DNA of 64,000 nt from an uncultured Candidatus Saccharibacteria bacterium (GTDB lineage Bacteria; Patescibacteriota; Minisyncoccia; SW-4-49-11). The notes below the pieces were generated by a model. That model saw only the letters and a program-made list of their open reading frames with translations, did no database searches and was not told where the DNA came from. Within the stretch, counting starts at the first letter, position 1. Each line of letters starts with the position of its first letter. The stretch spans positions 2,352 through 66,351 of the forward strand of contig CAZWIJ010000001.1 of assembly GCA_964633865.1 (NCBI GenBank). Direction: 5' to 3'. Positions 17,329 to 42,248 of the stretch are shown piece by piece. A program made the position numbers and the translations under genes.

Positions 17329-18129
17329 TTATTCATATTGTTTTGGAACAGCTATTACTACAAATCTTTGGCTAGATGTCCATAGGGGGGTACAAGTATA
17401 AAGTGTTAAAATATGTTCTTTTGTAGGAGCTTCAATTTCAATTTGATCAGGATTAACTATTTTAGTTTCCACTACCTGGTAATTATAGTCCTTACCTTCC
17501 CAAGTTATAATTATTGTATCATTTATTTTTAATTTGGGTAGGTGATAGAATGTATCACTATTATTTGTATACATGAATCTATGTGCTGTTATTACCATAT
17601 TACTTTTTTTTATGGGATTTCCAGAATTAGATTTATGCCAAATTCCTTTATATAAAGATTTAGAATTATTACTAGAATGGATATTTGAATCTAGATTAAT
17701 ATTTTGGATTTGAATTTTTTTAATAGTTTTATTCAAATCAGTTTTTTTTAAAGAAGGATTAATTATTGAGCTCTCATCTTTTGAAATAATATTATCTACT
17801 GGAGATTGCTCTTTTAATTTATCTGAGAATTGTACAGATTTTGAAATGTTAGTTTTATTTATTTGCTCAGGTACAATGAATGATTCAGACGGATTTGTAT
17901 TATTTGAATTTAGATTAGAATATAAATTATTTACATTTATATTTTTCTTCATTATAAATGTAAATTCTGGTAATATAGGTTTGATTAGTATATATACAGC
18001 TAAAATAAATATAGATAATGTTAAAAAAAAATTTAAAATATTAAATAATTTTATAAATTTTAAACTATTAGGATAGTATTTTATAGTGGATATTAGAGGA
18101 TTAATATTTTTATTTTTATTATGATACAT
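17329..18129 (-). CDS. sortase family transpeptidase
   Basis: N-terminal TM. The catalytic triad sits in 'VITAHRF' (His), 'LTLYTCTP' (Cys, TLxTC) and 'RFVV' (Arg). Confidence 0.6.
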   Translation of the reverse strand: MYHNKNKNINPLISTIKYYPNSLKFIKLFNILNFFLTLSIFILAVYILIKPILPEFTFIMKKNINVNNLYSNLNSNNTNPSESFIVPEQINKTNISKSVQFSDKLKEQSPVDNIISKDESSIINPSLKKTDLNKTIKKIQIQNINLDSNIHSSNNSKSLYKGIWHKSNSGNPIKKSNMVITAHRFMYTNNSDTFYHLPKLKINDTIIITWEGKDYNYQVVETKIVNPDQIEIEAPTKEHILTLYTCTPLWTSSQRFVVIAVPKQYE

Positions 18130-20103: not shown

Positions 20104-21747
20104 TTATTGAAGAGGATTAGTCACAACTTTATTTGGTGGTCTATAATTAGAGAAGAATTCATCTTTTCTTAATAATTGTCCATTTTCATAAATTTCACGA
20201 TAGGCGACAGTCTTCCTAGAACCATCTTTATTAGAAGATAAAGTAATAGGACCAATTATCTTAGAAGTTTTGGTTTGAGGAGCTCCATATATCTGGTAGT
20301 ATATTTTAGTCCCTACTATATAGTGCTGAATCAATATATAATTATTAGTTGTATTTTTAAATTTGAAGTCAGGTTTAGGAATATAAATAGTAGCATCTAA
20401 TCCAGGTGTACCATAATAGGGAACTATATATGAATGGTTTTGTCTTTCTGTAATATCAAGAGAAGCATTAAGAGCAGCTCTAAACAAAGTTGTGGAAACT
20501 TGACAGACACCACCTCCGTATTCTGGTATAGTTTGATTTCCTTTTATAACTAATTCAGGTACATATCCAGTACTTGCATTTACTGCACCTAGTCTTGTTA
20601 CAAAAGAAAACTCTTGATCTGGAGCTATCAAGTAACCAGATATTTTATTAGCAGCCACATTGATATTTTTTACACGACTAGCACTAGATCCTCTAAAATC
20701 AGATTCTCCAGTTCCTAATAAAGTTGTAATTCCAAGAGAATCTAAATTCTCAGAGTCAACATTTGCTTTTGTAATAGCAATGAACATATCAGTAGAATTT
20801 TTACCTTCCAAAATATTAGAAGATATTCTTCGGGCTGTTTCTTCTACCATCAAATCAAGTCCTTCCCTAGATGGAGTAGATGCTTCAAGTTTATTGGTAT
20901 TATTATTAAATCTTACCGTAGCATTCTGAGGTTTTTGTGAAACTTGACTAGATATTGTTTTTAGATATTCTATTATTTGTTCTGTGTTTAAATTTAATTC
21001 TTGATCATCATATTTGATCCAAGTAATAACTTTATCTTTTGGTATATCTAATGATATATGGTTTGCTGTTATCTTATGATCTTTGACTACAGACTTAATT
21101 TTAGCTAAATTTTCTTCCAAAAATTGTTGATTTAAATTAGCTTTCTCAATATTCATTTCTACATTAACTGTAAGATTTTCATTTAATATAGACTTTACAA
21201 TATCATTAGCTAAATTAGCGGAGTTAACAGTTTGACCATTTTTTTCAGGAATTACAATTATATCTCCATTTTTTATTGATAGACTAGCATCTTGTGATTC
21301 ATTTATAAACTCTGAAAAATATTCATTTATAACCTTAGTAAATTTTTCTTGATCTATATTATATTCCCAGGTTAGTTTTTCTTCTTTCCAGAATATTAAA
21401 ATACCTTTCAAAAATTCACTTCTTTTAGAGTTATAAGCTTTAACTAAAGTTTTATCTAATAAAAGTTCTATTCCAAGTTCTGGTAAAGTAGTTTCTTGTG
21501 TAAAATTTTCTTTGACCAAGTTTATTTTAGTTGTTTCAAGTTTTTCTTTTTCTAAAGTTAATTTTGTAAGACCATCTTTTAGTGTGAGATTACTTAAATT
21601 AGCTTTTTCTATAAAAGTTTGTGGGTAAATTTTTTCTTTATAACCTATTATAAAAATAAAAAATAATATTAATGCAATAGCTGTTATGAATATTAAAGTT
21701 ATGAGAATTATTTTAAGATATTTAATAATAAGTGTTTCAGAATTCAT
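20104..21747 (-). CDS. VanW-domain protein (membrane-anchored)
   Basis: N-terminal TM. The C-terminal 'GGGVCQVSTTLFRAAL' is the VanW signature. Confidence 0.65.
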   Translation of the reverse strand: MNSETLIIKYLKIILITLIFITAIALILFFIFIIGYKEKIYPQTFIEKANLSNLTLKDGLTKLTLEKEKLETTKINLVKENFTQETTLPELGIELLLDKTLVKAYNSKRSEFLKGILIFWKEEKLTWEYNIDQEKFTKVINEYFSEFINESQDASLSIKNGDIIVIPEKNGQTVNSANLANDIVKSILNENLTVNVEMNIEKANLNQQFLEENLAKIKSVVKDHKITANHISLDIPKDKVITWIKYDDQELNLNTEQIIEYLKTISSQVSQKPQNATVRFNNNTNKLEASTPSREGLDLMVEETARRISSNILEGKNSTDMFIAITKANVDSENLDSLGITTLLGTGESDFRGSSASRVKNINVAANKISGYLIAPDQEFSFVTRLGAVNASTGYVPELVIKGNQTIPEYGGGVCQVSTTLFRAALNASLDITERQNHSYIVPYYGTPGLDATIYIPKPDFKFKNTTNNYILIQHYIVGTKIYYQIYGAPQTKTSKIIGPITLSSNKDGSRKTVAYREIYENGQLLRKDEFFSNYRPPNKVVTNPLQ

Positions 21748-25938: not shown

Positions 25939-26691
25939 ATGATAAATATAGATTTAGCTTTTATAATATCTAGTTTTATAGCTGGTATTTTGACATTTCT
26001 TGCTCCTTGTACATTCCCTTTGATTCCAGCATATATAGGGTTTATCACTGGTGAAGGCTCTATAGATAAAAATAAAAATTATAAAAAAGACATACTTTAT
26101 AATGGAATATTTTTTGTTCTTGGATTCACATTGATATTTGTTTTATTTGGATTATTTGCAATTAGCTTAGCTAAATTGATAGGTCCTAATTATAGGCAAA
26201 TACTTTCTCGTATAGGAGCTGTAATTATTATATTTTTTGGCTTAAATCTATTAGGTGTATTTAAATTAAAATTTTTACAACAAACAATCAATTTGAAATT
26301 TCCACGATATATGACCCCAGGAAGTAAAAGAAGTTCATTTTTGTTAGGAGTTTCACTTGCTTTTGGGTGGAGTCCTTGTATTGGTCCTATTTTGGGAAGT
26401 ATTCTTACTTTAACTTTCAATGTAAGTACAGTCTATTCTGGAGTGTTAATGATGTTAGTTTTTTCTATCGGATTAGCGGTACCATTTATTTTGACAGCAA
26501 TTTTTATAGGAGAATTTACGGGATTTATAAAAAAAATAGAATCTGCCACAGTATGGATATCTAAATTAAGTGGATTAATTCTAATCTTTATAGGTGTTCT
26601 TTTAATGACAAATTATTTTGGTTATTTTAGTAATAAAATTTTCAAGTGGTTTGATTTCTTTAATTATGATTCATTATTAGATTTATTATAA
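25939..26691 (+). CDS. ccdA: cytochrome c biogenesis / thiol-disulfide electron transporter CcdA (DsbD-family)
   Basis: Six TM helices. Cys in 'LAPCTFPLIPAY' and in 'WSPCIGPILG' are the CcdA signature pair. Confidence 0.7.
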   Translation: MINIDLAFIISSFIAGILTFLAPCTFPLIPAYIGFITGEGSIDKNKNYKKDILYNGIFFVLGFTLIFVLFGLFAISLAKLIGPNYRQILSRIGAVIIIFFGLNLLGVFKLKFLQQTINLKFPRYMTPGSKRSSFLLGVSLAFGWSPCIGPILGSILTLTFNVSTVYSGVLMMLVFSIGLAVPFILTAIFIGEFTGFIKKIESATVWISKLSGLILIFIGVLLMTNYFGYFSNKIFKWFDFFNYDSLLDLL

Positions 26692-26694
26692 AAT

Positions 26695-27447
26695 ATGAAA
26701 TACTTAATAAAAAACAAAATTTTCTTAATCTCAAGCATAATAATATTTTTTATTAGCTTTTTTCCTGTTTATTTCATTTTTAATCCAAATGATTTTCCAT
26801 TTGACATAAATATATTTATTGGAGTATCTGTTTTTAGTAGTATAATATTCTTTTTCCCAATTTTATATATATGTTTTAAAAGTTTTAAGAAGCACTTTTT
26901 TAGTCTGATTTTAATATCTTTTTATGCTATTTTAATAGAAAATATAGCTATATTAACAGGATTCCCTTATTCAAAATTTGTGTATTCTAATTTGATGGGC
27001 CCAAAATTTTTATTTGTTCCAATTACTTTGCCATTTGCTTGGATACCAATATTTTTTCTAGCTCTTATTATAGTTTATAAGATTAAAAATAAAATGACCA
27101 AAATAATTTCAGGAGGATTAATTATGACATATTTTGATCTTGTCCTAGATCCTGGAGCCACAAATATAGGTTTTTGGATATGGGAAATTAAATCAGGTTT
27201 TTATAATGTACCATATATAAATTTTTTTGGTTGGATCTTGACAAGTACATTAGCATTTATTCTTTGGGAATCAATTTATCCCAAATTCTCACCTAAAGTT
27301 CAAGACCAAAAATATTTACTTTTGTCAGGTATATATACCTTAGTATTCTTTATGGGAGTTAATTTTTGGTTAGGGCAAATAATTCCAGTAATATTAGGAC
27401 TAATTTTATGGATATATATTTATAAAAATTTTTTTATTAAAAAATAA
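26695..27447 (+). CDS. polytopic membrane protein (possibly PF04240 carotenoid-synthesis-associated-like)
   Basis: Seven hydrophobic helices. 'DLVLDPGATNIGFWIWE' and 'PYINFFGW' are reminiscent of the Caroten_synth family. Weak. Confidence 0.3.
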   Translation: MKYLIKNKIFLISSIIIFFISFFPVYFIFNPNDFPFDINIFIGVSVFSSIIFFFPILYICFKSFKKHFFSLILISFYAILIENIAILTGFPYSKFVYSNLMGPKFLFVPITLPFAWIPIFFLALIIVYKIKNKMTKIISGGLIMTYFDLVLDPGATNIGFWIWEIKSGFYNVPYINFFGWILTSTLAFILWESIYPKFSPKVQDQKYLLLSGIYTLVFFMGVNFWLGQIIPVILGLILWIYIYKNFFIKK

Positions 27448-27450
27448 TAT

Positions 27451-28068
27451 ATGAAAAAAATTTTAATCATAGATTTTAATAAAACATTACAAGATAGATT
27501 AATGTGGCAAAGTATAAAAGATCCAGAAAATCCCTTATACGGAAATTTTGACAGAATAGATAATTTTATTTTCAAAGAAAGAAGAGATTTATTAGAAGCT
27601 TGGCTGATAGGGAGTATCAATACTGAAGATGTTCATGAAGAAATAAGTGATAAATTAAATCTAGACTATAAAATACTTTTGGATAGCTTTATCTATGATT
27701 GTGAACAGATGATAGTGAATGAAGAGTTTTTATTTGTCCTAGAAAAATTACAAGAAAAATTTTGGTTAATCCTAGCAACTGATAATATGGATAGTTTTGA
27801 TAGATTTATCCTACCACAAAATCCATATTTGAAGGTTTTATTTGACGAAATCCATAATTCTTATAATTTAAGGATTAGAAAATCCACTAATAATGGAGAA
27901 TATTTTAAAAGAGTTTTATACAAGTATAATATTTTAGCAAAAGATATGATATTAGTAGATGATTCTACCAAAAGTTGTTTACCTGCAAAGGAGATGGGAA
28001 TAGAAGTCTATCAACCTAAAAGTATAAAAGAAACACTTGATATTCTGAATAAGTTATCAACATATTGA
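27451..28068 (+). CDS. HAD-superfamily hydrolase-like protein
   Basis: Motif I-like 'ILIIDFNKTL' (DxN variant), 'ILATDN', and motif IV 'ILVDDS'. Confidence 0.4.
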   Translation: MKKILIIDFNKTLQDRLMWQSIKDPENPLYGNFDRIDNFIFKERRDLLEAWLIGSINTEDVHEEISDKLNLDYKILLDSFIYDCEQMIVNEEFLFVLEKLQEKFWLILATDNMDSFDRFILPQNPYLKVLFDEIHNSYNLRIRKSTNNGEYFKRVLYKYNILAKDMILVDDSTKSCLPAKEMGIEVYQPKSIKETLDILNKLSTY

Positions 28069-28124
28069 CAATATATAATCAAATCAAGTATAATAGGTAA
28101 TATATATACATAAATTATAATTAT

Positions 28125-28532
28125 ATGATAAATAAATTAAGTAAAATAATTTTAGGTTTAGGTTTGTTTTCAATATTAGGCTTTAATTTCTATGGTCTGA
28201 ATCTAAGTTTTGTAGAAATAGCCTCAGCTGGGATAGAAGTAACACAAGATACTAGAAATGCTGGAGTTATTCCTGATGTAGAATTAAATAATGAAGAAAC
28301 AAGCTTCATTGAGACAGTACAAATTTTTATTAATTGGATCTTAGGTTTCTTAGGAATTATTGTGTTTGGATTATTCTTGATTGCTGGATTTCAATATGCA
28401 ACTGCAGGTGGTGATGAAGGTACAACCAAAAAAGCACTGTCTACAATGACAAATGCTGTTATTGGTTTGATAATTCTATTCTTTGCTTTCTCCGCTACCA
28501 ATCTTATTGTTGGATTTGCATTAAATGTGTAG
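28125..28532 (+). CDS. secreted TrbC/VirB2-like (T4SS-pilin-like) hairpin protein, paralog 1
   Basis: Signal peptide (…VEIASA|G), a short ectodomain, then the conserved module 'INWILGFLGIIVFGLFLIAGFQYATAGGDEGTTKKA…VIGLIILFFAFSATNLIVGFAL'. Confidence 0.55.
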   Translation: MINKLSKIILGLGLFSILGFNFYGLNLSFVEIASAGIEVTQDTRNAGVIPDVELNNEETSFIETVQIFINWILGFLGIIVFGLFLIAGFQYATAGGDEGTTKKALSTMTNAVIGLIILFFAFSATNLIVGFALNV

Positions 28533-28553
28533 TAATTCCTATATTAAAAAAAA

Positions 28554-29360
28554 ATGAGACCAAAACAAAAAATAATTATATTAATAGTAACTATATTTAC
28601 TATTTTAAATATAAATATAGTTCTAGCTAATACACCTTGTACTAATAATTCACAGTGTAATTCTAATCAAATTTGTGAAGATAGTAAGTGTAAAGGAAAA
28701 TCAGGAGCTACATGTACTACTAGTTCAAGAACACTTACAGAAGCTGAATGGGAATCTTATGAAAATAATCCAGATGGACCAACTATAAATACTAGAATAG
28801 ATCCATCTGATAATTGTGAAATAGGACTTTTTTGTGATAATAAGAAAAAATGTTGTACTTATGGAGCATGTGATTGGGAAGGAACTCAACCCAATGATCC
28901 TAACCCTCCATCAGATCCTGATACTGATCCAGATGATGATATAGATCCAACAAACCCTACTTTTGATGATGGAAACTCTCTTGATGACACAGAATTTCAA
29001 GGTGGAGTATCAGTATCCAGAGATGAAAGTATTGATAGTGGAGATTTATCTACAGGTGGAAGTGGAGCAGGCTCAGAAAATAGAACAATTTTACTACCAG
29101 ATACAGAATTAAATGATAGTAATTCTAGTCTTCTTGGAGAAGTAGAGAGACTTATCAATTGGACTTTGGGATTTTTGGGTATATTGGTATTTAGTATGAT
29201 GTTATTTGCAGGATTTGAATATGCAACTGCAGGTGGAGATGAAGCTAAAACAAATAAGGCTATTTCCAGAATAAAAGCAACAGTGATTGGTTTAGTCATT
29301 TTATTCTTTGCATTTGTCACAACCAATCTTATTGTAGGGTTAGCTTTAGGTAGAATTTAG
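28554..29360 (+). CDS. secreted Cys-rich (10 Cys), Pro/Asp-rich ectodomain fused to TrbC/VirB2-like hairpin, paralog 2
   Basis: Signal peptide (VLA|NTP). A Cys-rich block 'CTNNSQCNSNQICEDSKCKG..TCTT…NCEIGLFCDNKKKCCTYGACDW', the linker 'PNDPNPPSDPDTDPDDDIDPTNP', and the same C-terminal module as its neighbours. Confidence 0.55.
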   Translation: MRPKQKIIILIVTIFTILNINIVLANTPCTNNSQCNSNQICEDSKCKGKSGATCTTSSRTLTEAEWESYENNPDGPTINTRIDPSDNCEIGLFCDNKKKCCTYGACDWEGTQPNDPNPPSDPDTDPDDDIDPTNPTFDDGNSLDDTEFQGGVSVSRDESIDSGDLSTGGSGAGSENRTILLPDTELNDSNSSLLGEVERLINWTLGFLGILVFSMMLFAGFEYATAGGDEAKTNKAISRIKATVIGLVILFFAFVTTNLIVGLALGRI

Positions 29361-29426
29361 AAATAATAATATTACAAAAATATAATATTTATGTTAATAT
29401 AATACTATATACTTAATTCAATTCAA

Positions 29427-29828
29427 ATGTCTACTAAAATAAAAATATTTCTCAATATAATAATACTCTCAATTATATTATTATCATTGAATGTTATCAC
29501 TATTTCATATGTAAATGCTGATGGATATGTAGCACCAGATGCAGAGAGAATAGGAGCTACAACTTTACCTAATACAGATGTGTATCAGTCTACAAGTCTT
29601 ATTGAAACAATAGAAATCTTTATCAATTGGGTATTGGGATTTTTGGGAATAATAGTATTTAGTATGTTTTTATTCTCAGGATTTGAATATGCAACCGCAG
29701 GTGGTGATGAAGGTAAGGCTAAGAAGTCAATAGAAAGAATCCAAAATACAGTAATAGGAATGATAATCTTATTTTTTGCTTTCGTCTCAACCAATTTAAT
29801 AGTGGGCTTATCTCTAGGTAGAATTTAA
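29427..29828 (+). CDS. secreted TrbC/VirB2-like hairpin protein, paralog 3
   Basis: Signal peptide (VNA|DGY). The C-terminal module 'INWVLGFLGIIVFSMFLFSGFEYATAGGDEGKAKKS…' is about 80% identical to paralog 2. Confidence 0.55.
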   Translation: MSTKIKIFLNIIILSIILLSLNVITISYVNADGYVAPDAERIGATTLPNTDVYQSTSLIETIEIFINWVLGFLGIIVFSMFLFSGFEYATAGGDEGKAKKSIERIQNTVIGMIILFFAFVSTNLIVGLSLGRI

Positions 29829-29833
29829 ATTAT

Positions 29834-30808
29834 ATGAAAAAAATTATAATCAATCAATCAATCTTAGTAAATATTCTAAAAATAACTTTTTTAATGATAG
29901 TTTTTGTGAGTGGAGTAGGGGAGGTGAGTGCAGCAGCTCAAGATGAAGCTTGTAGAGGTAAGCAACCTTTTGAAAAATGTATATATGGTTCTGCTGATCC
30001 TAATACAACAAATTATGCATGTATACCAAAACAATCTGGTGATAATGGTATCCCAGGTAATTTATTTTGTGAAAATTCAGAATCCAACATAACAAAAGCT
30101 AAAGAATGTAAATGGAAATTGACAGAAGGAGTTGTTTGTATGAAAGGTACAACACTAGGTGAGTGTATAGAAGTAATTTCAGTTGGTAGAACTAAAACTT
30201 ATACATGTAAAACTACTGATCCAGAGTCAGACTGTACTACTCTAGCCTGTGATAAAAAGTCTCCTCCTCAGACCTGTAAGGTCACTAATGGAACAGCAGC
30301 TTGCGATGCTAAAGATTCTTGTAATGATGCTTGTAAAAGTGATCCTGATAAACCAAAATGTCAGATAACAGGAACTGGTGGAGCAGGCACATGTGTTGCA
30401 GAGGATGATTATAAGTGTAAAGATAATCCTTGTACTGGAGCTACACCACATTGTATTGTGAAAAATGGAACGGGTACTTGTTCTTCAGCTAATATCCCAG
30501 CTCCTGATCTAGTTGATCCCAATGATCCAAATACACCTACTCCAACCATAGAATATGTAGAGTTCAAAAATCCTATAAGATTCAATAATATAATAGAGCT
30601 ATTAGCAGGAATCACAAATGCATTACTTACACTTCTAGGAGTGATAGCGGTACTAGTAGTAATGTCTGCAGGATTTAAGTATATGACAAGTTCTAATCCT
30701 GGAGAAGTATCTCAAGCGGTGGGAGGAATCAGGAATGCTGTAATAGGAATAGTAGTTATTATGGGAGCATACTTAATAGTGAATTATGTAATAAGTTCAG
30801 TTTTATAA
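29834..30808 (+). CDS. secreted 20-Cys ectodomain fused to divergent TrbC/VirB2-like hairpin, paralog 4
   Basis: Signal peptide (VSA|AAQ). About 190 aa with 20 Cys at regular spacing (e.g. CKTTDPESDCTTLACDK). The C-terminal 'LLTLLGVIAVLVVMSAGFKYMTSSNPGEVSQAVGGIRNAVIGIVVIMGAYLIVNYVISS' is a diverged version of the shared module. Confidence 0.5.
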   Translation: MKKIIINQSILVNILKITFLMIVFVSGVGEVSAAAQDEACRGKQPFEKCIYGSADPNTTNYACIPKQSGDNGIPGNLFCENSESNITKAKECKWKLTEGVVCMKGTTLGECIEVISVGRTKTYTCKTTDPESDCTTLACDKKSPPQTCKVTNGTAACDAKDSCNDACKSDPDKPKCQITGTGGAGTCVAEDDYKCKDNPCTGATPHCIVKNGTGTCSSANIPAPDLVDPNDPNTPTPTIEYVEFKNPIRFNNIIELLAGITNALLTLLGVIAVLVVMSAGFKYMTSSNPGEVSQAVGGIRNAVIGIVVIMGAYLIVNYVISSVL

Positions 30809-30826
30809 AAATACTAAATAAAAAAC

Positions 30827-30853
30827 CGTATATTCATAAAATATACGATTTTA
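30827..30853. terminator. bidirectional rho-independent terminator closing the pilin-like cluster
   Basis: CGTATATT-cataa-AATATACG stem-loop followed by ATTTTAATT and preceded by an A-run. Lies between convergent genes. Confidence 0.45.
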
Positions 30854-30874
30854 ATTATTGTTTAATTTAAAAAT

Positions 30875-31597
30875 TTATTCATTAGCTTGATAAACTAATA
30901 TAGCATTAGGCCATTCTTGTTTTGTTTCACCACTCTCTTTTTCAATTCTCATCGAATCTTGAGAAGGTAATTCCCACTGTAAGATTAGTATATTTTCCTT
31001 CATTATTTTTTCTGGGTATTTCTTGCATTTGCTATTTTCTGTAGCAATAGCAAGAGAATCACCATTAATATATATTGATTGTACTAGATTGCCGCCATCA
31101 TTGTCATAAGCCCCCGTGAAGCAGATTTGGATTTTTCCAGTTTGGGGCATAGTAAATCTTACTTTAGAGCCATCACTTGGAATAATTCCAAGTTCAGTAT
31201 AACCTAATGGAATTACAGGAGGATTAGGATCAAAAAATCTACTCTGAGCCAATTGAACTTTAGGTCTAGGAATAGGCTTATTCACCTGAGCTTTTAAGTG
31301 ATCTGGAAGTGTATTGTAATACCTTTCTTTTAAATGATCAGGCAGATTATTGTAAGTCTGCAATTTAATTCTTTGGGAATTCTGATTAATTTGCATAATT
31401 ATCCAGAATGTAGGAATTCCTATTAATATTAATGTAATTATTGTCCAAATTAAACCCCAATTAAACTTAGAAGCTTCTTTTACATCAGCTTTAGGAGTAG
31501 CAGTCTTAGAGCTAGTATTTTGCTTTGTTTCAGATTTAGTATCTGAGGTGGGAGTGGGGTTTGAATCACTTCCTTTAAGGTTGTTTTGAAATCCCAT
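30875..31597 (-). CDS. hypothetical membrane-anchored protein with Thr/Ser-rich N-terminus and duplicated 'YNxLPDHLK' motif
   Basis: 240 aa with one TM. The internal repeat is 'YNNLPDHLKERY / YNTLPDHLKAQV'. Confidence 0.4.
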   Translation of the reverse strand: MGFQNNLKGSDSNPTPTSDTKSETKQNTSSKTATPKADVKEASKFNWGLIWTIITLILIGIPTFWIIMQINQNSQRIKLQTYNNLPDHLKERYYNTLPDHLKAQVNKPIPRPKVQLAQSRFFDPNPPVIPLGYTELGIIPSDGSKVRFTMPQTGKIQICFTGAYDNDGGNLVQSIYINGDSLAIATENSKCKKYPEKIMKENILILQWELPSQDSMRIEKESGETKQEWPNAILVYQANE

Positions 31598-31723
31598 AAA
31601 TTAAAAATTGTAAATATGAAAGAACTAGAAGATTTTAGCATAAAAACAACATTTTGTCAATATTTATTATCAATAAATAAAAAAGGCAGATTATATAATC
31701 TGTCTTGGTATTTTGATCGAGAA

Positions 31724-32914
31724 TTAGCCATCTTTAGAACTATCTAAGGCAGCTATGATTTGACTAACTATATTGAGACCATCACCACCTCCTTGGAAGA
31801 AAAATTTAGCTTTATCACCAAGTACTTCTGCTACAGCTGGGTATTTAGATAAAATATTAAATAATTCTTGTTCAGAGATTGAACCACCAGAACCAGTATT
31901 TTCTTCTAAAATAGCTTCGATAATACCTTTAGATTGTATTAGTAGAGCTTTTGCTTCACCAGTTCTTTGGACTCTTAGAGCTTTTGCTTCACCAAGTTTT
32001 TGGGTTCTTAGAGCTTTTGCTTCTCCAATTCTTTGGGTTCTTAGAGCTATTGCTTCTCCTATTTTTGATTCAATCAAGTTTTTATTCTGTTCTTTAACTA
32101 TCTCGTACTGAATTTTAGTAGCATCTAACTTAGCATTTTGCTCAGCTGATAATCTTCCTCTTTCTTCTCTTGCTTTATCTATAGATTCAGGTGGATTTAT
32201 GTCTACTATGAAAAGCTCCATCAAACATAATCCAGATTCTCTCAATTTATTCACAATTTCAGAACCAATTTGTGATCCAGGTGTTGGTACTAAGATGTTA
32301 TTAACTTTCTGTAATCCTAGTTCTTTGTAAAGCCTATCTTGTTTGATATTAGATATACCGGTAACTTCAAAGTCATCTGCTTGATAAGAAGGATTGTTTC
32401 TCAAAAACTCTGCTTGCTCATTTTTGTCTCTTTCATATATTTGTCCTTGAAAGATAGTCTTAACATAAGAATTAAGAATTAATTCTGTCTGTTGGACATA
32501 ATCTTGTTGAGCAGCAATATAGTGAGCTTTCCAATAATCTTCTAAGTTATTGGAATTATCTGAAATCTTTGCGATAGCAGTTGCTTTCAAGGTGATAATC
32601 ATATTCTGAAGTTCTACCTTTGCCATATCCTTTCCTTCTACTGATCCATCATGTCTAAATAAATAGGAATTAAAAGGAACAGAATGCATGGGTTCTATGA
32701 ACTTATGGAGAAAGTTTTTTAATAAAAACCAATGTGGTCCTGATGTTAAAAATCCTGAGCCTACAATATGTTGAGGATTAACTCCTTTTTGTGGTCTATT
32801 ACCTAGAAAAGAAATTAACCACACTTGATCATCAGGAACAATGAAAAATCCTTGTATTAATAATACTATTATAAAAATCAAGATTAATAAAAAAGATAAT
32901 AGGGAGATTCCCAT
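31724..32914 (-). CDS. SPFH/Band-7 (flotillin/HflC-like) membrane protein with C-terminal EA-type repeats
   Basis: N-terminal TM, an SPFH core ('VDINPPESIDKAREE'), then 'IGEAIALRTQRIGEAKALRTQKLGEAKALRVQRTGEAKAL'. Confidence 0.65.
   Translation of the reverse strand: MGISLLSFLLILIFIIVLLIQGFFIVPDDQVWLISFLGNRPQKGVNPQHIVGSGFLTSGPHWFLLKNFLHKFIEPMHSVPFNSYLFRHDGSVEGKDMAKVELQNMIITLKATAIAKISDNSNNLEDYWKAHYIAAQQDYVQQTELILNSYVKTIFQGQIYERDKNEQAEFLRNNPSYQADDFEVTGISNIKQDRLYKELGLQKVNNILVPTPGSQIGSEIVNKLRESGLCLMELFIVDINPPESIDKAREERGRLSAEQNAKLDATKIQYEIVKEQNKNLIESKIGEAIALRTQRIGEAKALRTQKLGEAKALRVQRTGEAKALLIQSKGIIEAILEENTGSGGSISEQELFNILSKYPAVAEVLGDKAKFFFQGGGDGLNIVSQIIAALDSSKDG
31944..32075. repeat. 4 x 33-bp in-frame tandem repeat inside the SPFH gene
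   Basis: The units agagcttttgcttcaccagttctttggactctt / …accaagtttttgggttctt / …ctccaattctttgggttctt / degenerate fourth unit encode 11-aa 'KALRTQxxGEA' repeats. Confidence 0.7.
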
Positions 32915-33804: not shown

Positions 33805-35853
33805 ATGAGTGTAAAATTAGCTAGTCAGTACAAAATTTCAATAAATAATGAAGACAAAATATATCTTTTGAGACACTTACAAGCAATAGAGTCTGTAGAA
33901 ATTGTTACTAATGATAATCCAGAGAGTTTAGGAGAAGAAGAACTTTCATTAAAAAATGAACTGTTGGATAAATTAGATAGAATTGATAAATCTATTGATA
34001 TATTCCTTAAAATTAATCCTATTAAAAAAAATATTTTATCTGGATTACTTGACTTTAGAGTAAAAATTAAAGAAGAAGAGTTCAAAAAAATTTCTTCGAA
34101 TCAAGATGATATAATCTCAGAAGTAGACTATATTAATAAAATATCAGAAGAAAAAGAAGATTTATATCTTAGAAATAGAATTTTAAAAGATATTATAAAA
34201 AAGGTAGAACCTTTGAAAAATATAGAATTAGATATCTTTGATGATTTTAAGTATATTGATTTTATACCTTTTATGATTGGAGCTAATAGATCTCATTATG
34301 TGCTAGATCAAATTGAGAATCTATTCCCTAATACTATTTTTGAATCTATCAAAAAAATAGATAAAGAATATGTATATTTGATTGCTTTCCAAAAAAATGA
34401 TTATAAAGAAATTTATGAATTCATATCTAGTCAAGCAACAGTCTTTAACTTTAGATTAAATAATCTAGGGAATTCTTTTTATGAGATTTATAATAGAGCT
34501 TCTGATGAAATAAAGTTAAATCAAGATAAAATAGAATCTATTTCCAAAGATTTAAGTAAAACTAAAATTAATTTAGAACAACTTTATACTATAAAAGATA
34601 TTTTGAAGTCACAAATTAATATTATAGATGAATTACATAATTTCAATTCTATTAATAATGAAATGTCTTATATAAGGGTTTGGGTATCTGAAGAAAATAT
34701 TCATAAAATTTCTGTTAAGATTAAGAGATTGTTCAAAAACTATACCTTTATTGAATCTTCAACTATAAAAGGAGATGCTCCTGTAATTATGACAAATAAT
34801 AAGCTTGTCTCTAATTTTGAATCAATAACTAAAATTATGGGTATGCCTAAAGGTGGTTCTATTGATCCCACTTTCTTTGTAGCATTTTTCTTTACCTTTA
34901 TGTTTGGGTTAGCTTTATCTGAGGCTGGATATGCTGTGGTCTTAATTTTGATCGTTGGATTTTTATTAACCCTCAAAAATCTAAAAGAATCTATCAGGGC
35001 ATTTATGTTAGTTATATTATTCTCTTCTATTACTACTTTGATAGTTGGAGCTATGTTTGGTAGTTGGTTTGGAGTAGTTCCTGATGATGTTATTATTTAT
35101 GAAGATGCATTACCTCATATGAAGTTTTTGATAGATATTGGATTAATTGGTGTATTGCAAAAATTACAAGTATTGAATCCTATGAGTACTGTGGTTTCAT
35201 TAATGGTATTTACTGTAGTAATTGGTTTAATTCACTTGTTACTAGGACTCATTTTGGGGTTTGTCCGAGAATATTCTAGAGGGAATGCTCTTAATGGTGC
35301 ATTAGATTCATTGTCGTGGTTTTTCTTAATTATACTTGGATTATTTACTACTCTTGCTAGGCAAAATTTACTAGGGGAAGGATTATATTATTTATCATCA
35401 ATAATGATTTTGATATTGATTGGATATAGTGTAATTATGATATTTGTTTTGGGTCGTGATGCAGGTAAAAATATTTTTCTTAAATTTGGAAAAGGTTTAT
35501 ACGATATGTTCTTTGGTATTATAGGTTATCTTTCCGATACTTTATCTTATACTAGGTTGATTGCTCTTGGTTTGGCTACAGGTATTATTGCTGGAGTTGT
35601 GGGTACTTTAGCTAGATTAGCTGGAGAGGGATTAGTAGATAAAGGTGGAGTTTATATTATTATAGGTTATATAATTATGACTGTGATATTCATATTTGGG
35701 CATATCTTTAATATTGCTCTTAATGTTTTGGGTACCTATATTAATGTAGGAAGACTTCACTTTGTAGAATTTTTTAGTAAGTTTTTTGAATCTGGAGGAA
35801 GAGAAATATCTTATCTAAAAAGATCTCAGGAATTTATTAAGATAGAAAAGTAG
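33805..35853 (+). CDS. ntpI: V-type ATP synthase subunit I (a)
   Basis: 682 aa. A ~350-aa hydrophilic N-terminal half is followed by a polytopic C-terminal half, and it is encoded directly upstream of the proteolipid. Confidence 0.75.
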   Translation: MSVKLASQYKISINNEDKIYLLRHLQAIESVEIVTNDNPESLGEEELSLKNELLDKLDRIDKSIDIFLKINPIKKNILSGLLDFRVKIKEEEFKKISSNQDDIISEVDYINKISEEKEDLYLRNRILKDIIKKVEPLKNIELDIFDDFKYIDFIPFMIGANRSHYVLDQIENLFPNTIFESIKKIDKEYVYLIAFQKNDYKEIYEFISSQATVFNFRLNNLGNSFYEIYNRASDEIKLNQDKIESISKDLSKTKINLEQLYTIKDILKSQINIIDELHNFNSINNEMSYIRVWVSEENIHKISVKIKRLFKNYTFIESSTIKGDAPVIMTNNKLVSNFESITKIMGMPKGGSIDPTFFVAFFFTFMFGLALSEAGYAVVLILIVGFLLTLKNLKESIRAFMLVILFSSITTLIVGAMFGSWFGVVPDDVIIYEDALPHMKFLIDIGLIGVLQKLQVLNPMSTVVSLMVFTVVIGLIHLLLGLILGFVREYSRGNALNGALDSLSWFFLIILGLFTTLARQNLLGEGLYYLSSIMILILIGYSVIMIFVLGRDAGKNIFLKFGKGLYDMFFGIIGYLSDTLSYTRLIALGLATGIIAGVVGTLARLAGEGLVDKGGVYIIIGYIIMTVIFIFGHIFNIALNVLGTYINVGRLHFVEFFSKFFESGGREISYLKRSQEFIKIEK

Positions 35854-35976
35854 ACTAAATATAATTTATGTTTTCTTTTCCAATGATATTTAGGTTGATA
35901 TTATTGGAAAGGAAACCAAAATAAATTTGTTTGGATTGCCTTATATAAAAATTTATTAGCTTATCAAAATATTAAT

Positions 35977-36453
35977 ATGGAATTATTAGGAATTAGTTTA
36001 GCAGTTTTAGGTGCAGCTTTATCTGCTGGTCTTGCTGGAGCTGGATCAGCTATGGGAGTTGCTAAATCAGCTGAAACTGGCGCAGGTCTAGTCTCAGAAG
36101 ATGAATCGCAATTTGGTAATGTTCTTTTGTTATCTGCATTACCTGGATCCCAAGCTATTTATGGTCTTTTAGCATCTATTATAATCTTACAAAATACTGG
36201 AGTTTTAACAGGTGAATTTGTAAATCTTCCTTGGCAGAATGGTTTATTATTAGCTTTTGCTGGAATACCTGTTGGGGTAACTTGTTTGTTATCTGGTAAA
36301 TACCAGGGAAATGTTATTGCTAGTGGGATGCAAGTTATCGCTAAAGATAAGAGTAAAATTGGACAAGTGATTATTTTAGCTGCTTTGGTAGAAACTTTCG
36401 CGGTCTTTGGATTATTGGTTTCTATTTTGATGATAAATGGAGTAAAAATCTAA
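35977..36453 (+). CDS. ntpK: V-type ATP synthase proteolipid subunit K (c)
   Basis: 158 aa, four helices, Gly/Ala-rich 'LGAALSAGLAGAGSAMGV'. A duplicated c-ring hairpin. Confidence 0.8.
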   Translation: MELLGISLAVLGAALSAGLAGAGSAMGVAKSAETGAGLVSEDESQFGNVLLLSALPGSQAIYGLLASIIILQNTGVLTGEFVNLPWQNGLLLAFAGIPVGVTCLLSGKYQGNVIASGMQVIAKDKSKIGQVIILAALVETFAVFGLLVSILMINGVKI

Positions 36454-36466
36454 TATATAAATTTAT

Positions 36467-37006
36467 ATGTCTATTCAAAATATAGTTAAAGCAAAGATTG
36501 AAAAAGATTTAGAAGAGTTAGAATTGTATTATCAAAAAGAGTTGAAGTTAATTTCTGAGAATTTTGAGCTTAAGACTAAAAACTTAGAAAGAAAATATAA
36601 TAGTGAAATTTCTAATGTGATTGATTCTGAGTTAAATATGCATAAGTTTTTGAATAAAAGAGATTCAAAATTTAAAAATGAATCAAATTTTAATAAATCT
36701 CTAGATAAGATTTATTCTGATATGATAATTGAAATAATTGAAAGTAAGTTTGGTAAGAATATTTTGAATAAATTTGTAAAAGATTTGGATAAAAATAGTG
36801 AGTTTATAGTTAAGGGTAAATTATCTGACAAATTAATTTCTGAATTAAAAGCTTTAGGTTACTCTAATTTCGAAAAACACCAAGATGAATCTATTCTTGG
36901 TATAGTTTTGTATCAAGAAGAAGATAGATATCTAGAATTTGATTTAGAAGATATTATAGAGAATGTAAAGAAGTTAACTTTAAATAAAGTTATTGAATCA
37001 TTATAA
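36467..37006 (+). CDS. ntpE: V-type ATP synthase subunit E
   Basis: 179 aa. A long N-terminal helix plus a C-terminal globular part 'GIVLYQEEDRYLEFDLEDII'. Position in the operon also fits. Confidence 0.6.
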   Translation: MSIQNIVKAKIEKDLEELELYYQKELKLISENFELKTKNLERKYNSEISNVIDSELNMHKFLNKRDSKFKNESNFNKSLDKIYSDMIIEIIESKFGKNILNKFVKDLDKNSEFIVKGKLSDKLISELKALGYSNFEKHQDESILGIVLYQEEDRYLEFDLEDIIENVKKLTLNKVIESL

Positions 37007-37008
37007 TT

Positions 37009-37941
37009 ATGGCTATGCAAATACCAATAGCTAGCCTATCAGCTAGCTTGATAGTAAAATTTCACAAGATACCAAAGTATCAGGAGCTACTTACAATTAT
37101 TTCTGAGAGTAGTTTTTTTGATGATATTGATTCTTTTTTGAAGAAATATCTAGTAATTGATAATACTCAAAATTTAAATCTTTCTTATTTTAATGAATAT
37201 TATGAAAAAGAAATAAATTATATCATTAATAGATTGCCAGATGAAAGTTTCTCTAAGATGTATTTAGTGTTACAAAAAGATTATGAGACATTAAAAGGTA
37301 TTGTATTATTTTTAAAACAAAATAATCAGGAATTTGGTAAAGATAATTTTGTAAAGGTGATGTCTGAGATTTCAGATAAATTAGTTTATAATCAAGATTT
37401 TAAGAAATATTTATCTAAAAAAGAATATGCTATAGAAAGATCAGTAGAGGTATATGGTTTAATCGCTTATTTAGAAGAAATTTATCTTACAATTTTGTCA
37501 GAGAAATTTAAAGATGCTCCTAAATTTTTTCAAAATTATCTGGAAGCAAAAATAAATACATATTATTTTATGTCAGCGATAAAGAGGACAGAACTTGGTC
37601 AATCTAAAGATCATATCCTAAATCATATTATTTCGATTCCTGGAGTTTTCTCTGTTTTAGAAAAGATGACATTTGGAGATATTGTGGGTGAGATTGGAGA
37701 ATATCTAAGATTGCCTATAGAGCAAATAAATGTAATTAATATTGAAAAAACTTTACTTATGAATGAAGTTAAAGCTATTAATCAAGCTAATTATCTTGGT
37801 CTTCATGATGAGAAAATTTTGCAATATATAGTTACTCTCAAATACTTTGGTAATAATATTAAATTAGCTTATCTCAAAAAAAGCATTAAACTACACGATA
37901 CTGAATTATTTGCTCGTATGATAGATTATAATTTTATATAA
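37009..37941 (+). CDS. ntpC: V-type ATP synthase subunit C (d)
   Basis: 310-aa helical protein in the canonical position between E and F. Confidence 0.6.
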   Translation: MAMQIPIASLSASLIVKFHKIPKYQELLTIISESSFFDDIDSFLKKYLVIDNTQNLNLSYFNEYYEKEINYIINRLPDESFSKMYLVLQKDYETLKGIVLFLKQNNQEFGKDNFVKVMSEISDKLVYNQDFKKYLSKKEYAIERSVEVYGLIAYLEEIYLTILSEKFKDAPKFFQNYLEAKINTYYFMSAIKRTELGQSKDHILNHIISIPGVFSVLEKMTFGDIVGEIGEYLRLPIEQINVINIEKTLLMNEVKAINQANYLGLHDEKILQYIVTLKYFGNNIKLAYLKKSIKLHDTELFARMIDYNFI

Positions 37942-37945
37942 ATAT

Positions 37946-38266
37946 ATGAATTCAAAAAAGTCGATATTTATAGGAAAAAAAGAAACAGTGACCTTGTTTA
38001 GAATTTTTGGTTTTGAGACAATTTCTTTAGATGAATTTGATGAGAAAGAAATCTTTGATAAGATAATTTCTGATAAAGATAATATAGGTTTAATTTTAAG
38101 AACAAATCAATTGGTTTTTTCTAATAAACAAAATGAAACTATTTTTGAACTTAATATTCCAATTATTGAAATTCCTATTGCTGAAGGTGAATCAGAATTA
38201 CAAATTAATGATTTACAGAATTTAATAGAAAAAGCTGTCGGAATGAAATTAGACTTTTTGAAGTAA
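37946..38266 (+). CDS. ntpF: V-type ATP synthase subunit F
   Basis: 106 aa. 'IFIGKKETVTLFRIFGFE' matches subunit F N-termini. Confidence 0.6.
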   Translation: MNSKKSIFIGKKETVTLFRIFGFETISLDEFDEKEIFDKIISDKDNIGLILRTNQLVFSNKQNETIFELNIPIIEIPIAEGESELQINDLQNLIEKAVGMKLDFLK

Positions 38267-38316
38267 AGATTTTGTTTTTGGATATATATTTATAATTCTT
38301 ATTGTAGGTATATATT

Positions 38317-38333
38317 CGAGAATAAAATTCTCG
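38317..38333 (+). promoter_or_regulatory. intra-operon stem-loop between ntpF and ntpA
   Basis: Perfect 7-bp stem CGAGAAT-aaa-ATTCTCG in a 128-nt intergenic gap, with no T-run after it. Confidence 0.3.
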
Positions 38334-38394
38334 CCAAGTTTGTTTAGCTTGGAATCAAATTAGTTTTATAGGTTGTATTAAAATAAATTGTTAT

Positions 38395-40209
38395 ATGATT
38401 ACAGGATTTATTATTAAAGTATCAGGTCCACTGATTGTGGCTGATCAGATGAAAGGAGCTAAGATGTATGATGTTGTACATGTTGGTCCCCAAAAATTGA
38501 TGGGGGAGATTATTGAAGTAAAACAAAATACTGTTTCCATCCAAGTCTATGAAGAAACAACAGGTTTGATGGTTGGTGATCCTGTTATTTCTACTGGAGA
38601 ACCTTTATCTATAGAATTAGGGCCTGGTCTTTTGACTACTGGTTTGTTCGATGGAATCTTGAGACCTCTTAATTTGATAGCTCGTGAAGTAGAAAAACAA
38701 GGATTTAATTCAGGATATATTAGAAGAGGTATCCAAATTTCATCTCTTGATCGTAATAAAAAATGGGCCTTCAAAGCTATTCTAAAAGAGGGTGATTTTG
38801 TGGTAGCAGGAGATATTTTAGGAACTGTACAGGAAACTGATTTAATACAACATAAAATTTTGGTTCCATTTGGGATAGAAGGTGAATTATCTATGATAAA
38901 AGATGGGGAATTCACTATTTTAGATACAATAGCTAAAGTTGGTGATAGAGAAATAAAAATGATGCACAAATGGCCAGTAAGAAAAGAAAGACCTAAAGTA
39001 AAAAAACATTTACCAACTGTCCCTTTAATTACACAACAAAGAATTATTGATACTTTTTTTCCTATCCCAAAAGGTGGTGCGGCCGCTGTTCCTGGACCTT
39101 TCGGTGCTGGTAAGACGGTTATCCAACAACAATTAGCTAAATGGTCTGATGCGGATATTGTGATTTATGTTGGTTGTGGTGAGCGAGGAAATGAATTGAC
39201 AGATATTTTGGTTGAATTCCCTCATTTGAAAGATCCAAAATCAGGGAAACCTTTAATGGATAGAACTATTGTGATTGCGAATACTTCCAATATGCCTATC
39301 GCTGCCAGGGAAGCATCTGTTTATACTGGAATAACTTTGGCTGAATACTATAGAGATATGGGATATAATGTGGCTATGATGGCTGATTCCACATCTAGAT
39401 GGGCTGAGGCTATGAGAGAAATGTCAGGTAGATTAGAAGAAATGCCAGGAGAAGAAGGTTATCCAGCTTATCTTGGATCAAGAATTTCATCTTTTTATGA
39501 AAGAGCTGGTTTGGTAACATGTCTTGGAAAGGATCAAAGAATGGGATCAGCAACTATAGTAGCTGCTGTATCCCCAGCTGGAGGAGATATGTCAGAACCA
39601 GTTAGTCAAGCAACCTTGAAAGTGACAAAAGCTTTTTGGGGATTGGATGCTGGCCTCGCTGCAAAAAAACATTTCCCATCTATCAATTGGCTTAATAGTT
39701 ATAGTTTATATGTAAATTCTGTTGAAGATTATTTTATAAAAGAAGCTGGAGCAGATTGGGGAGAACTTAGAGATTTAGCTATGTCAATTCTACAAAGAGA
39801 GAATGAATTAGACGATATTATCAAGTTAGTAGGAATGGAAGCACTTTCATTACAAGAAAAAATTCTTTTGGATACTGCTAAAACTTTGAGAGAAGATTAT
39901 TTGCAACAAAATGCTTTTGATGATGTAGATGCTTTTTCCTCAACTCAAAAAATGTATTTGATGTTAAAATGTATTTTGACTTTCCATCAAGAAGCTATTA
40001 ATTTGGTTAACAAAAATAAGGATGTAGAAATAAATGATATTATTGATTTAGAGTTGAAGAATGATATTTCTCGTTTAAAACAGATAAAAGAATCTGATTT
40101 AGATCAAATGGAAAATATTTTATCTAGAATTACAGAGGAATTACCTTTAGTTAAAAATGATGGAGATAATCAAGAATTTGGTTTAAATAAAGTTGTAAGT
40201 GGAATATAA
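38395..40209 (+). CDS. ntpA: V-type ATP synthase catalytic subunit A
   Basis: Walker A 'GPFGAGKTV', the A-subunit non-homologous insert, and 'MADSTSRWAEA'. Confidence 0.9.
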   Translation: MITGFIIKVSGPLIVADQMKGAKMYDVVHVGPQKLMGEIIEVKQNTVSIQVYEETTGLMVGDPVISTGEPLSIELGPGLLTTGLFDGILRPLNLIAREVEKQGFNSGYIRRGIQISSLDRNKKWAFKAILKEGDFVVAGDILGTVQETDLIQHKILVPFGIEGELSMIKDGEFTILDTIAKVGDREIKMMHKWPVRKERPKVKKHLPTVPLITQQRIIDTFFPIPKGGAAAVPGPFGAGKTVIQQQLAKWSDADIVIYVGCGERGNELTDILVEFPHLKDPKSGKPLMDRTIVIANTSNMPIAAREASVYTGITLAEYYRDMGYNVAMMADSTSRWAEAMREMSGRLEEMPGEEGYPAYLGSRISSFYERAGLVTCLGKDQRMGSATIVAAVSPAGGDMSEPVSQATLKVTKAFWGLDAGLAAKKHFPSINWLNSYSLYVNSVEDYFIKEAGADWGELRDLAMSILQRENELDDIIKLVGMEALSLQEKILLDTAKTLREDYLQQNAFDDVDAFSSTQKMYLMLKCILTFHQEAINLVNKNKDVEINDIIDLELKNDISRLKQIKESDLDQMENILSRITEELPLVKNDGDNQEFGLNKVVSGI

Positions 40210-40232
40210 TTTAGTAATTAATTTATTTTTAT

Positions 40233-41627: not shown

Positions 41628-41636
41628 ATTAAATTT

Positions 41637-42248
41637 ATGTTGATAAAACCAACTAGACAAGAATTATTAAAATTTAAGAAAAAACTTAAAACAGCATCTC
41701 GAGGACATAGACTTTTGAAGGATAAAAGAGATGGGTTAATTCAAAAATTTTTGGCTATCATAAAAGAAGTAGTCACTATAAGAAAAGAAATTAATAAAGA
41801 TTTATTAAAATCAATTGAGCTTTTTTATTATGCAAAAGCTAAAATTTCTAATTTGGAGTTAGATGAAATAGAAGAAAAATCTAATTCTGAAATAAAAGTA
41901 ATAAAAACAGATTCTAACTTTATGGGAGTTAATATTCCAAAGCTTGACTTTAATGTTGAAGGAGACCCATTTAATTATGGTGTTTTGAATATTCCAAAAG
42001 ACTTAGATCAATCAATCCTAACTTTTTATAAAGTCCTGCCTAAATTAATCAAACTGGCTGAACTAGAATATACATCCAAAAAATTAGCTGATGAGATAGA
42101 GAAGACCAGGAGAAGAGTAAATGCTCTTGAATATGTTATTGTTCCCGAGTTAAAAGAAAATATGAGATTTGTAGCTGGAGTATTGGAAGAAAGATCCAGA
42201 CAAGAAAAAGTTACAATTATGAAGGTAAAAGAGATTTTGGGATTGTAG
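41637..42248 (+). CDS. ntpD: V-type ATP synthase subunit D
   Basis: 203 aa, N-terminal 'MLIKPTRQELLKFKKKLKTASRGHRLLKDKRDGLI'. Confidence 0.8.
   Translation: MLIKPTRQELLKFKKKLKTASRGHRLLKDKRDGLIQKFLAIIKEVVTIRKEINKDLLKSIELFYYAKAKISNLELDEIEEKSNSEIKVIKTDSNFMGVNIPKLDFNVEGDPFNYGVLNIPKDLDQSILTFYKVLPKLIKLAELEYTSKKLADEIEKTRRRVNALEYVIVPELKENMRFVAGVLEERSRQEKVTIMKVKEILGL

Follow-up and report, generated by a model that had tools for sequence, protein, structure and literature searches.

Four genes lying in tandem at 28125-30808 on the + strand of the window (the whole 64,000-nucleotide stretch of contig CAZWIJ010000001.1, from an uncultured Candidatus Saccharibacteria bacterium, that we analyzed) encode proteins of the T4SS_pilin family (PF18895), and two of the four carry large cysteine-rich outer domains. 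We read the locus as a chromosomal, separately transcribed array of VirB2-like pilins (P1 to P4), in which the short members would be structural, and P2 and P4 would be minor subunits or anchored proteins that display Cys-rich binding heads. We put the probability of this reading at roughly 55%. The tandem array itself is ordinary for Patescibacteria. The newer points are the conserved Cys-rich heads, their mosaic and fast evolution, and the location of the array away from genes of any type IV secretion system (T4SS).

The four open reading frames (ORFs) are co-oriented and closely packed, with intergenic gaps of 21, 66 and 5 nucleotides (nt), exactly as the original prediction described them. 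P1 (28125-28532; 135 amino acids, aa) and P3 (29427-29828; 133 aa) are short VirB2-like pilin paralogues that contain no Cys. P1 consists of a signal peptide, an acidic outer segment of ~25 aa and a two-helix module. In P2 (28554-29360; 268 aa), a 10-Cys head (aa 29-106, nt 28638-28871) is joined by an acidic Pro/Asp-rich linker (aa 107-195) to the pilin anchor (aa 196-268). P4 (29834-30808; 324 aa) begins with an 8-Cys N-terminal subdomain (aa 34-133); three 4-Cys modules occupy aa 134-216, and a linker rich in Pro (aa 217-250) connects them to a diverged anchor (aa 251-324), whose loop reads KYMTSSNPGEV. Translation gave Cys counts of 0, 10, 0 and 20 for P1 to P4, which bears out the counts claimed for P2 and P4, and every one of these residues lies between the signal peptide and the C-terminal helices.

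All four proteins combine a signal peptide, a variable outer part and a conserved C-terminal module, again in line with the original description. Their N-termini are basic and hydrophobic and, read directly, end at sites of the A-x-A type (ASA followed by G in P1, VLA by N in P2, VNA by D in P3 and VSA by A in P4). These are predicted to be ordinary, cleavable Sec signal peptides. Each C-terminus shows two hydrophobic helices by hydropathy. The loops between the helices hold 2-4 Lys or Arg residues in P1-P3, and the outer segments of all four proteins are acidic, which fits a topology that has an external N-terminus and an internal loop.

Membership of all four proteins in PF18895 is established. 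Against a gathering score of 26.6 bits, P1 scored 35, P2 28.6, P3 30 and P4 43.4 bits, and the proposed assignment to a pilin family therefore stands. The other Pfam family that had been put forward, TrbC (PF04956), was not recovered above threshold. Only P4 was listed, at 18 bits (E = 0.0035, profile positions 37-97 aligned) under a gathering score of 27.9, and membership in TrbC/VirB2 proper is not established. Profile NF045849 aligned with all four modules over nearly the whole of its 80 positions (E = 1e-7 to 3e-10). Scores of 39.6, 31.1, 34.5 and 34.5 bits for P1 to P4 all fell under its equivalog cut-off of 40; the four are related to the NF045849 proteins and are not members. Homologues in the public NCBI annotation are already labeled 'Type secretion system pilin'.

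The module itself is strongly conserved. Across 50 module sequences, the loop residues Y, T, G, G and D are near-invariant. An AlphaFold2 model of P3, built on 50 homologues, had a mean predicted local distance difference test (pLDDT) score of 80 and placed a helical hairpin at residues 58-89 and 95-129 with pLDDT >90. P3 has 89 homologues, nearly all of them 106-180 aa long.

The cysteines of the Cys-rich heads are conserved. Among 17 orthologues of P4 (34-91% identity), 14 Cys residues are invariant and the anchor loop KYMTSSNPGEV is near-invariant. Mean pairwise identity was 80% in the anchor but fell to 42% for the outer domain, or to 37% once the Cys columns were left out. Beyond its own 90% cluster, P2 has a single full-length cluster of homologues (P0037, from the related locus L009), which keeps 10 of 10 Cys, with 56% identity in the outer domain and 91% in the anchor. 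The cysteines that the original prediction took for disulfide partners are conserved in homologues, then, so that neither outcome it had named as refuting was observed. Divergence is much faster in the outer domains than in the anchors.

In its second half, the P4 outer domain is a series of 4-Cys modules. P4 orthologues from relatives have an exact Cx4Cx5Cx8C spacing, and the three modules of the window protein are more loosely spaced (4/8/8, 3/8/10 and 4/6/8); that there are three explains its 20 Cys, compared with 16 in most relatives. The P2 head opens with one 4-Cys module directly after the signal peptide, as do the proteins at position 2 of the relatives' arrays. A profile of the P4 family matched the solved four-module CREMP structure 9pgb (E = 2.8e-5) over two module pairs, in an alignment that is short, driven by Cys and of high bias. 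AlphaFold2, given the 17 orthologues, placed beta hairpins between Cys3 and Cys4 at the module sites with pLDDT ~80, in a whole model that is poor (pLDDT 56). Both results point to two-disulfide beta-hairpin modules in the P4 outer domain that would resemble truncated-EGF (epidermal growth factor)/CREMP modules.

No domain was assigned to the outer part of P2 or P4 by Pfam or NCBIfam, and no EGF or FOLN match was found in Pfam. In a phmmer search of 1.84 billion representative proteins, the P4 outer domain alone matched only itself, which leaves the head untraced in other protein contexts. In four P4 orthologues (L010:10197-11159, L011:10421-11320, L013:10350-11315 and L014:9515-10429), two Cx4Cx5Cx8C modules are identical or nearly so within a protein and differ between species. 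This pattern suggests either intragenic gene conversion or repeated recent duplication.

The original prediction derived the whole array from tandem duplication. That origin is supported for P1-P3 and fails for P4. The 26-nt motif on which the claim was built occurs exactly three times in 64 kb (28394-28419, 29219-29244 and 29687-29712), with 0 copies expected by chance; each copy ends one base earlier than had been reported. It is embedded in a 233-nt direct repeat (family D1) whose three copies, 67-76% identical, cover the modules of P1 (28302-28534), P2 (29127-29359) and P3 (29595-29827), all on the + strand. Among P1-P3 the anchors are 59-70% identical, whereas P4 shares only 24-29% with them, so its anchor is indeed the most diverged, as had been claimed. 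In a neighbor-joining tree of the modules, P1, P2, P3 and their L009 counterparts form a lineage-specific clade beside array positions 4 and 5 of Paceibacteria, and P4 groups as the orthologue of position 6. P4 is thus an old, conserved Paceibacteria paralogue and not a product of the duplication that gave P1-P3, and a recent four-fold duplication was rejected for this reason. Many independent metagenome assemblies of the window's strain (L005, L007, L008 and L029-L032) break within or beside the P1 and P2 modules, with contig ends at window positions 28285-28400, 28563 and 29223; these breaks are likely due to the paralogous repeats at low coverage.

The close strain L022 is ~96% identical to the window in nucleotide sequence over the locus. 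Within P4, the segment that encodes the 4-Cys modules (aa 134-216; 30233-30481, + strand) is mosaic between close strains, with a synonymous divergence (dS) of 0.60, a nonsynonymous divergence (dN) of 0.19, a dN/dS of 0.32 and two 3-aa indels relative to L022. The N-terminal subdomain of P4 had a dS of 0.016 in the same comparison, and the P4 anchor a dN/dS of 0.04. The high dS of the module segment indicates that it was replaced by recombination, and the comparison did not demonstrate positive selection. In L022 the P1 gene (L022:3755-4161) lacks 1 nt of the pilin module (ATTAATTGGA-CTTAGG) and is thereby split into ORFs of 72 and 60 aa; either the gene is a pseudogene or the assembly contains an error. 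The strain of the window (at least 99.96% nucleotide identity) recurs in more than 10 metagenome assemblies.

The array appears to be transcribed as a unit of its own, judging from a conserved promoter and a terminator-like hairpin. A sigma-70-type promoter (28065-28094, + strand; TTGACA-18 nt-TATAAT, a 12/12 match to the consensus) sits in the 56-nt spacer between a HAD-like gene and P1. Both hexamers are retained in L022 and in the more diverged L009, despite changes in the spacer sequence around them. Downstream, a hairpin with an 8-bp stem (30827-30847) lies between P4 and the convergent gene for a 240-aa protein, with an A-tract at 30820-30825 and a T-tract at 30849-30852. It folds at -8.9 kcal/mol (z = -2.07), and L022 retains it with one extra pair. 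A consensus terminator scan missed this hairpin, which has only 2 G-C pairs. A terminator between convergent genes, as originally proposed, is plausible here, although, being AT-rich, it does not deserve the word 'clean' that had been attached to it.

Genomes that encode relatives of P4 are Paceibacteria/Parcubacteria metagenome-assembled genomes, and the organism of the window, a tiny and probably host-dependent bacterium, is related to them. Nine relatives share a conserved, ordered array of six PF18895 genes in which the Cys-rich members hold fixed positions, namely 1, 2 and 6. The position-1 protein has 330-500 aa and 10-30 Cys, with its PF18895 module internal, and is separated from position 2 by the gene for a non-pilin membrane protein of ~230 aa. 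Position-2 proteins have ~215 aa in most relatives (range 142-279) and in most 8-9 Cys, those of L015 and L019 being shorter and Cys-poor. Positions 3-5 encode short pilins of 111-162 aa with 0-1 Cys. At position 6 the protein has either ~250-320 aa, with 16 Cys in most relatives and 8 in L012, or 146-153 aa and no Cys (the short form of L015 and L017). In the position-1 proteins with 16-30 Cys (L010:6155-7492, L011:5624-7033, L014:4973-6472 and L017:5107-6432), the module lies at about aa 184-260 and Cys-rich domains flank it on both sides. The genes for these four proteins start 4 nt inside the end of a solute-binding SBP_bac_1 gene, overlapping its stop; the window has no equivalent of position 1.

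On the reading that we prefer, P1-P4 would be exported by the Sec pathway, and their signal peptides would be cut. The hairpin would then insert so that both its N-terminus and its short C-terminus face outward, while the conserved Y-A-T-A-G-G-D-E/basic loop faces inward. P1 and P3 would serve as structural subunits, by analogy with the six-pilin array of Southlakia epibionticum ML1 (SEML1_0014-0019), which lies within a T4SS cluster and is required by that species to grow as an epibiont (PMC10633639). P2 and P4 would be minor subunits whose heads, made up of two-disulfide CREMP-like modules and an 8- or 10-Cys subdomain with presumed disulfides, stand on Pro/Asp/Thr-rich stalks. Those heads may be displayed on the exterior of a T4SS-associated filament or directly on the membrane, where they could bind structures of the host-cell surface. 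Assembly of a pilus would fall to a VirB4-type machine encoded elsewhere in the genome. In solved pili of the VirB2/TraA type, the N-terminus of the pilin is on the outer surface, so an N-terminal head is topologically compatible with such a filament, though probably only at low stoichiometry. Use of the pilin hairpin as a display scaffold for Cys-rich heads, an idea of the original prediction, is plausible.

A number of results weigh against this reading. A Pfam scan of 44 window ORFs, covering all those of at least 500 aa, found no T4SS gene (VirB4, VirB6, VirD4 or other), in agreement with the original remark that such genes are missing nearby. The 10-kb flanks of the array in seven relatives (loci L001/L010-L017) were likewise free of T4SS genes. 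With no T4SS gene in the neighborhood, the link to a T4SS comes only from family membership; where a T4SS cluster is defined by a pilin within ~20 genes of virB4, virB6 or trsD, the window array falls outside. The relation of P1-P4 to canonical VirB2 is remote. An alignment by hhalign with VirB2 of the Agrobacterium tumefaciens Ti plasmid covered the right region (mature residues 56-108) at a probability of 4.8%, and an hmmsearch of PDB sequences with the module profile matched no pilin. Foldseek returned generic helical hairpins for the P3 hairpin model, with no conjugative pilin and nothing below E = 0.6, and nothing meaningful in the PDB for the P4 model, itself poor (best E = 0.22). Helical hairpins are, however, too simple for profile or fold tests against solved pilins to discriminate. 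In addition, a VirB2-type filament would probably not accommodate a 200-aa N-terminal domain on each of its subunits, and P2 and P4 may never polymerise. Positive selection is not shown by the dN/dS of 0.32 in the variable segment. Finally, a pilus is yet to be observed in any Patescibacterium, and PMC12857230 treats one as a possibility.

The main rival explanation is that these proteins form a stand-alone surface display system, independent of any T4SS, in which the PF18895 hairpin is a mere membrane anchor and neither the short proteins nor the Cys-rich adhesins polymerise. We regard this as a serious contender, though on balance doubtful. Both in the window and in seven relatives, the array consistently lies far from T4SS genes, in a housekeeping neighborhood (gyrA ... 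rpsL-rpsG-fusA), and its long Pro/Asp/Thr linkers resemble stalks that span a cell wall. An internal module with Cys-rich domains on both sides, as at position 1 of the relatives, is hard to fit into a filament, and the position-6 proteins of L015 and L017, which have no outer domain, make the head look like an add-on to the anchor. However, the conservation of the loop (Y, T, G, G and D) and of the P4 anchors at 80% identity goes beyond what a passive anchor would need, and P1 and P3, almost without an outer domain, would lack anything to display. In S. epibionticum, members of this family are essential and are encoded within a T4SS cluster, and such pilin genes occur near virB4 in 1135 of 1948 assemblies.

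The other two alternatives lie much further from the evidence. DNA uptake by a type IV pilus or a competence pseudopilus, one of the functions floated in the original prediction, has in its favor only the general facts that these are small, hydrophobic, secreted proteins encoded in an array and that natural competence occurs in Patescibacteria (PMC10633639). P1-P4 lack a class III signal peptide with its N-methylation motif (cleavage between G and F/M-xxx-E) and have ordinary Sec A-x-A sites instead. They match no type IV pilin or N_methyl family in Pfam, have two C-terminal helices where one N-terminal helix would be expected, and have no PilB, PilC or ComEC gene nearby among the scanned window ORFs. 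We consider such a pilus extremely improbable and rejected it for its wrong class of signal peptide.

Coupling to CcdA deserves somewhat more credit, though still very little. On this explanation, which goes back to the original prediction, the pilin genes would form one functional unit with ccdA (25939-26691), which would supply reducing equivalents for folding of the Cys-rich heads. The identity of CcdA holds up (DsbD_TM in Pfam), and the gene lies upstream on the same strand with no terminator detected before P1. The adjacency that had been claimed does not, since 1.4 kb and two unrelated genes, encoding a PF04240/CruF-like protein (26695-27447) and a weak HAD match (27451-28068), stand between ccdA and P1. 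These three genes (25939-28068, + strand, 3-nt gaps) are context outside the array. Their order before the array is shared with L009 and L022 and is kept only in these close relatives; in more distant ones (L010-L017) the array is preceded by gyrA, a methyltransferase gene and an SBP_bac_1 gene and is not linked to ccdA, even though pilins there are richer still in Cys. The perfect, phylogenetically conserved promoter before P1 also argues against a single unit, although some read-through transcription may occur. CcdA passes reducing, not oxidising, equivalents, and could at most serve disulfide isomerisation. Since the array has its own promoter and its linkage to ccdA is lost in distant relatives, functional coupling is not supported, and we rejected this explanation.

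More speculatively, the Cys-rich pilins (P2, P4 and positions 1, 2 and 6 of the relatives) may be undescribed fusions of pilin and adhesin. They would act as host-recognition subunits of a T4SS-like filament in place of the missing adhesins of the VirB5/PrgB type, with exchangeable, recombining EGF-like modules that set host range; or else the VirB2 hairpin would, in Paceibacteria, have become detached from the T4SS as a self-standing display system. We offer this tentatively and would not bet on it. Published surveys report no PrgB-type adhesin in Patescibacteria. A literature search for Cys-rich outer-domain fusions on pilins of the candidate phyla radiation (CPR) found none described in searchable papers, which is absence of evidence only.

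Two convergent genes on the - strand (30875-32914) follow the array and encode a 240-aa membrane protein and an SPFH/Band_7-like protein; this pair is syntenic with the array across the Paceibacteria relatives. The 240-aa protein (30875-31597) is 70% identical to its L022 counterpart, compared with 94-98% for its neighbors, with a dN/dS of 0.44. Its C-terminal outer part is hypervariable and contains indels, and a gene of similar size holds the same place in all relatives. The SPFH/Band_7-like protein (31724-32914, -) contains a repeated 'GEAKALR(T/V)Q' segment, and homologues lie downstream of the array in L010, L013, L014 and L017. Upstream, the product of 26695-27447 (+) is a homologue of a carotenoid-pathway membrane protein (PF04240; like CruF/bisanhydrobacterioruberin hydratase, though under NCBIfam cut-offs), in a reduced CPR genome.

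Elsewhere in the window, 33805-42248 (+) is an apparent V/A-type ATPase operon with subunit I, the c subunit, further small subunits, catalytic A and probably B and D. A glycoside hydrolase family 81 (GH81, endo-beta-1,3-glucanase-like) protein is encoded at 45388-47367 (+), and a BNR/sortilin-type repeat protein follows it at 47438-48562 (+). GH81 is uncommon in bacteria, and here it could relate to host or fungal cell-wall glucans. Cell-surface functions are also encoded by a sortase gene (17329-18129, -), a gene for a large secreted beta-propeller protein (PF09826; 13855-15789, -) and one for a VanW/PG_binding_4 protein (20104-21747, -). Rfam found no RNA family in the window.

The array bears on how ultrasmall Patescibacteria recognize and attach to their hosts. 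In the one species tested, a T4SS-like system and its pilin array are essential, and no adhesin is known. A conserved set of proteins from the pilin family, whose outer domains are disulfide-rich, diverge fast and recombine, provides concrete candidates for host binding in Paceibacteria, the largest class, and a PF18895 anchor preceded by 4-Cys modules is a simple marker for comparative work. Published work and public annotation already record the basic finding of a T4SS_pilin array in a CPR genome. The original prediction called this family uncharacterised, which is only partly right; arrays in Patescibacteria have been published, one of them essential (PMC12102498, PMC10633639, PMC12857230).

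Those published arrays are the closest known systems. VirB2-like pilins (PF18895 and PF04956) were found in 1,948 Patescibacteria assemblies that also hold VirB4 and were near virB4 in 1,135 of them (PMC12102498), and 441 arrays of 2-11 pilin genes were counted in 383 Patescibacteria assemblies (PMC12102498; Quinonero-Coronel et al. 2025). A 2025 review treats a pilus built by the T4SS of monoderm Patescibacteria as an intriguing possibility (PMC12857230). Such arrays share with ours the PF18895 family, a Sec signal peptide and helical hairpin, tandem divergent paralogues and a monoderm, ultrasmall, host-dependent lineage. SEML1_0014-0019 of S. epibionticum are likewise PF18895 proteins, but they have 126-185 aa and lie in a T4SS cluster, whereas to both sides of the window array at least 28 kb are free of T4SS genes. 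The disulfide-rich outer domains of 175-220 aa seen in two of four members in the window and in three of six in the relatives go unmentioned for published arrays in searchable papers.

VirB2, TrbC (PF04956) and TraA of diderm T4SSs resemble the window proteins in their long leader and in a pair of hydrophobic helices with a short polar or basic loop between them. The window proteins differ in their sub-threshold scores, in having no adjacent virB3-virB11 and in their probably monoderm organism. VirB2, TrbC and TraA are not known to have large N-terminal outer domains. NF045849 (the Mbov_0395 family of pilin-like conjugal transfer proteins from Mycoplasma integrative and conjugative elements) aligns with the module over nearly its full length, though the window proteins score below its cut-off and lie outside the context of such an element. 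This similarity ties the window family to monoderm conjugation systems of the MPF-FATA type.

For the heads, the nearest likeness is to the tandem small 4-Cys modules of CREMP (PDB 9pgb), follistatin-N-like or truncated EGF modules and Dumpy DPY. CREMP modules are beta hairpins with two disulfides (C1-C3 and C2-C4), akin in design to truncated EGF and follistatin-N, and form an extended rod-like chain (PMC12723725). In P4 the spacing is looser, the match is short and Cys-driven, and no Pfam EGF or FOLN match accompanies it. Common descent with the animal modules is unlikely, and the resemblance is one of design, not of membership. Loci with multiple VirB2 paralogues are also cited for Bartonella and Anaplasma (PMC12102498); there, as in the window, T4SS pilin genes of a host-associated bacterium have been amplified in tandem and have diverged. 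The variation in those loci, antigenic or in host range, lies within the pilin itself, whereas in the window the anchors are conserved and the appended outer domains vary.

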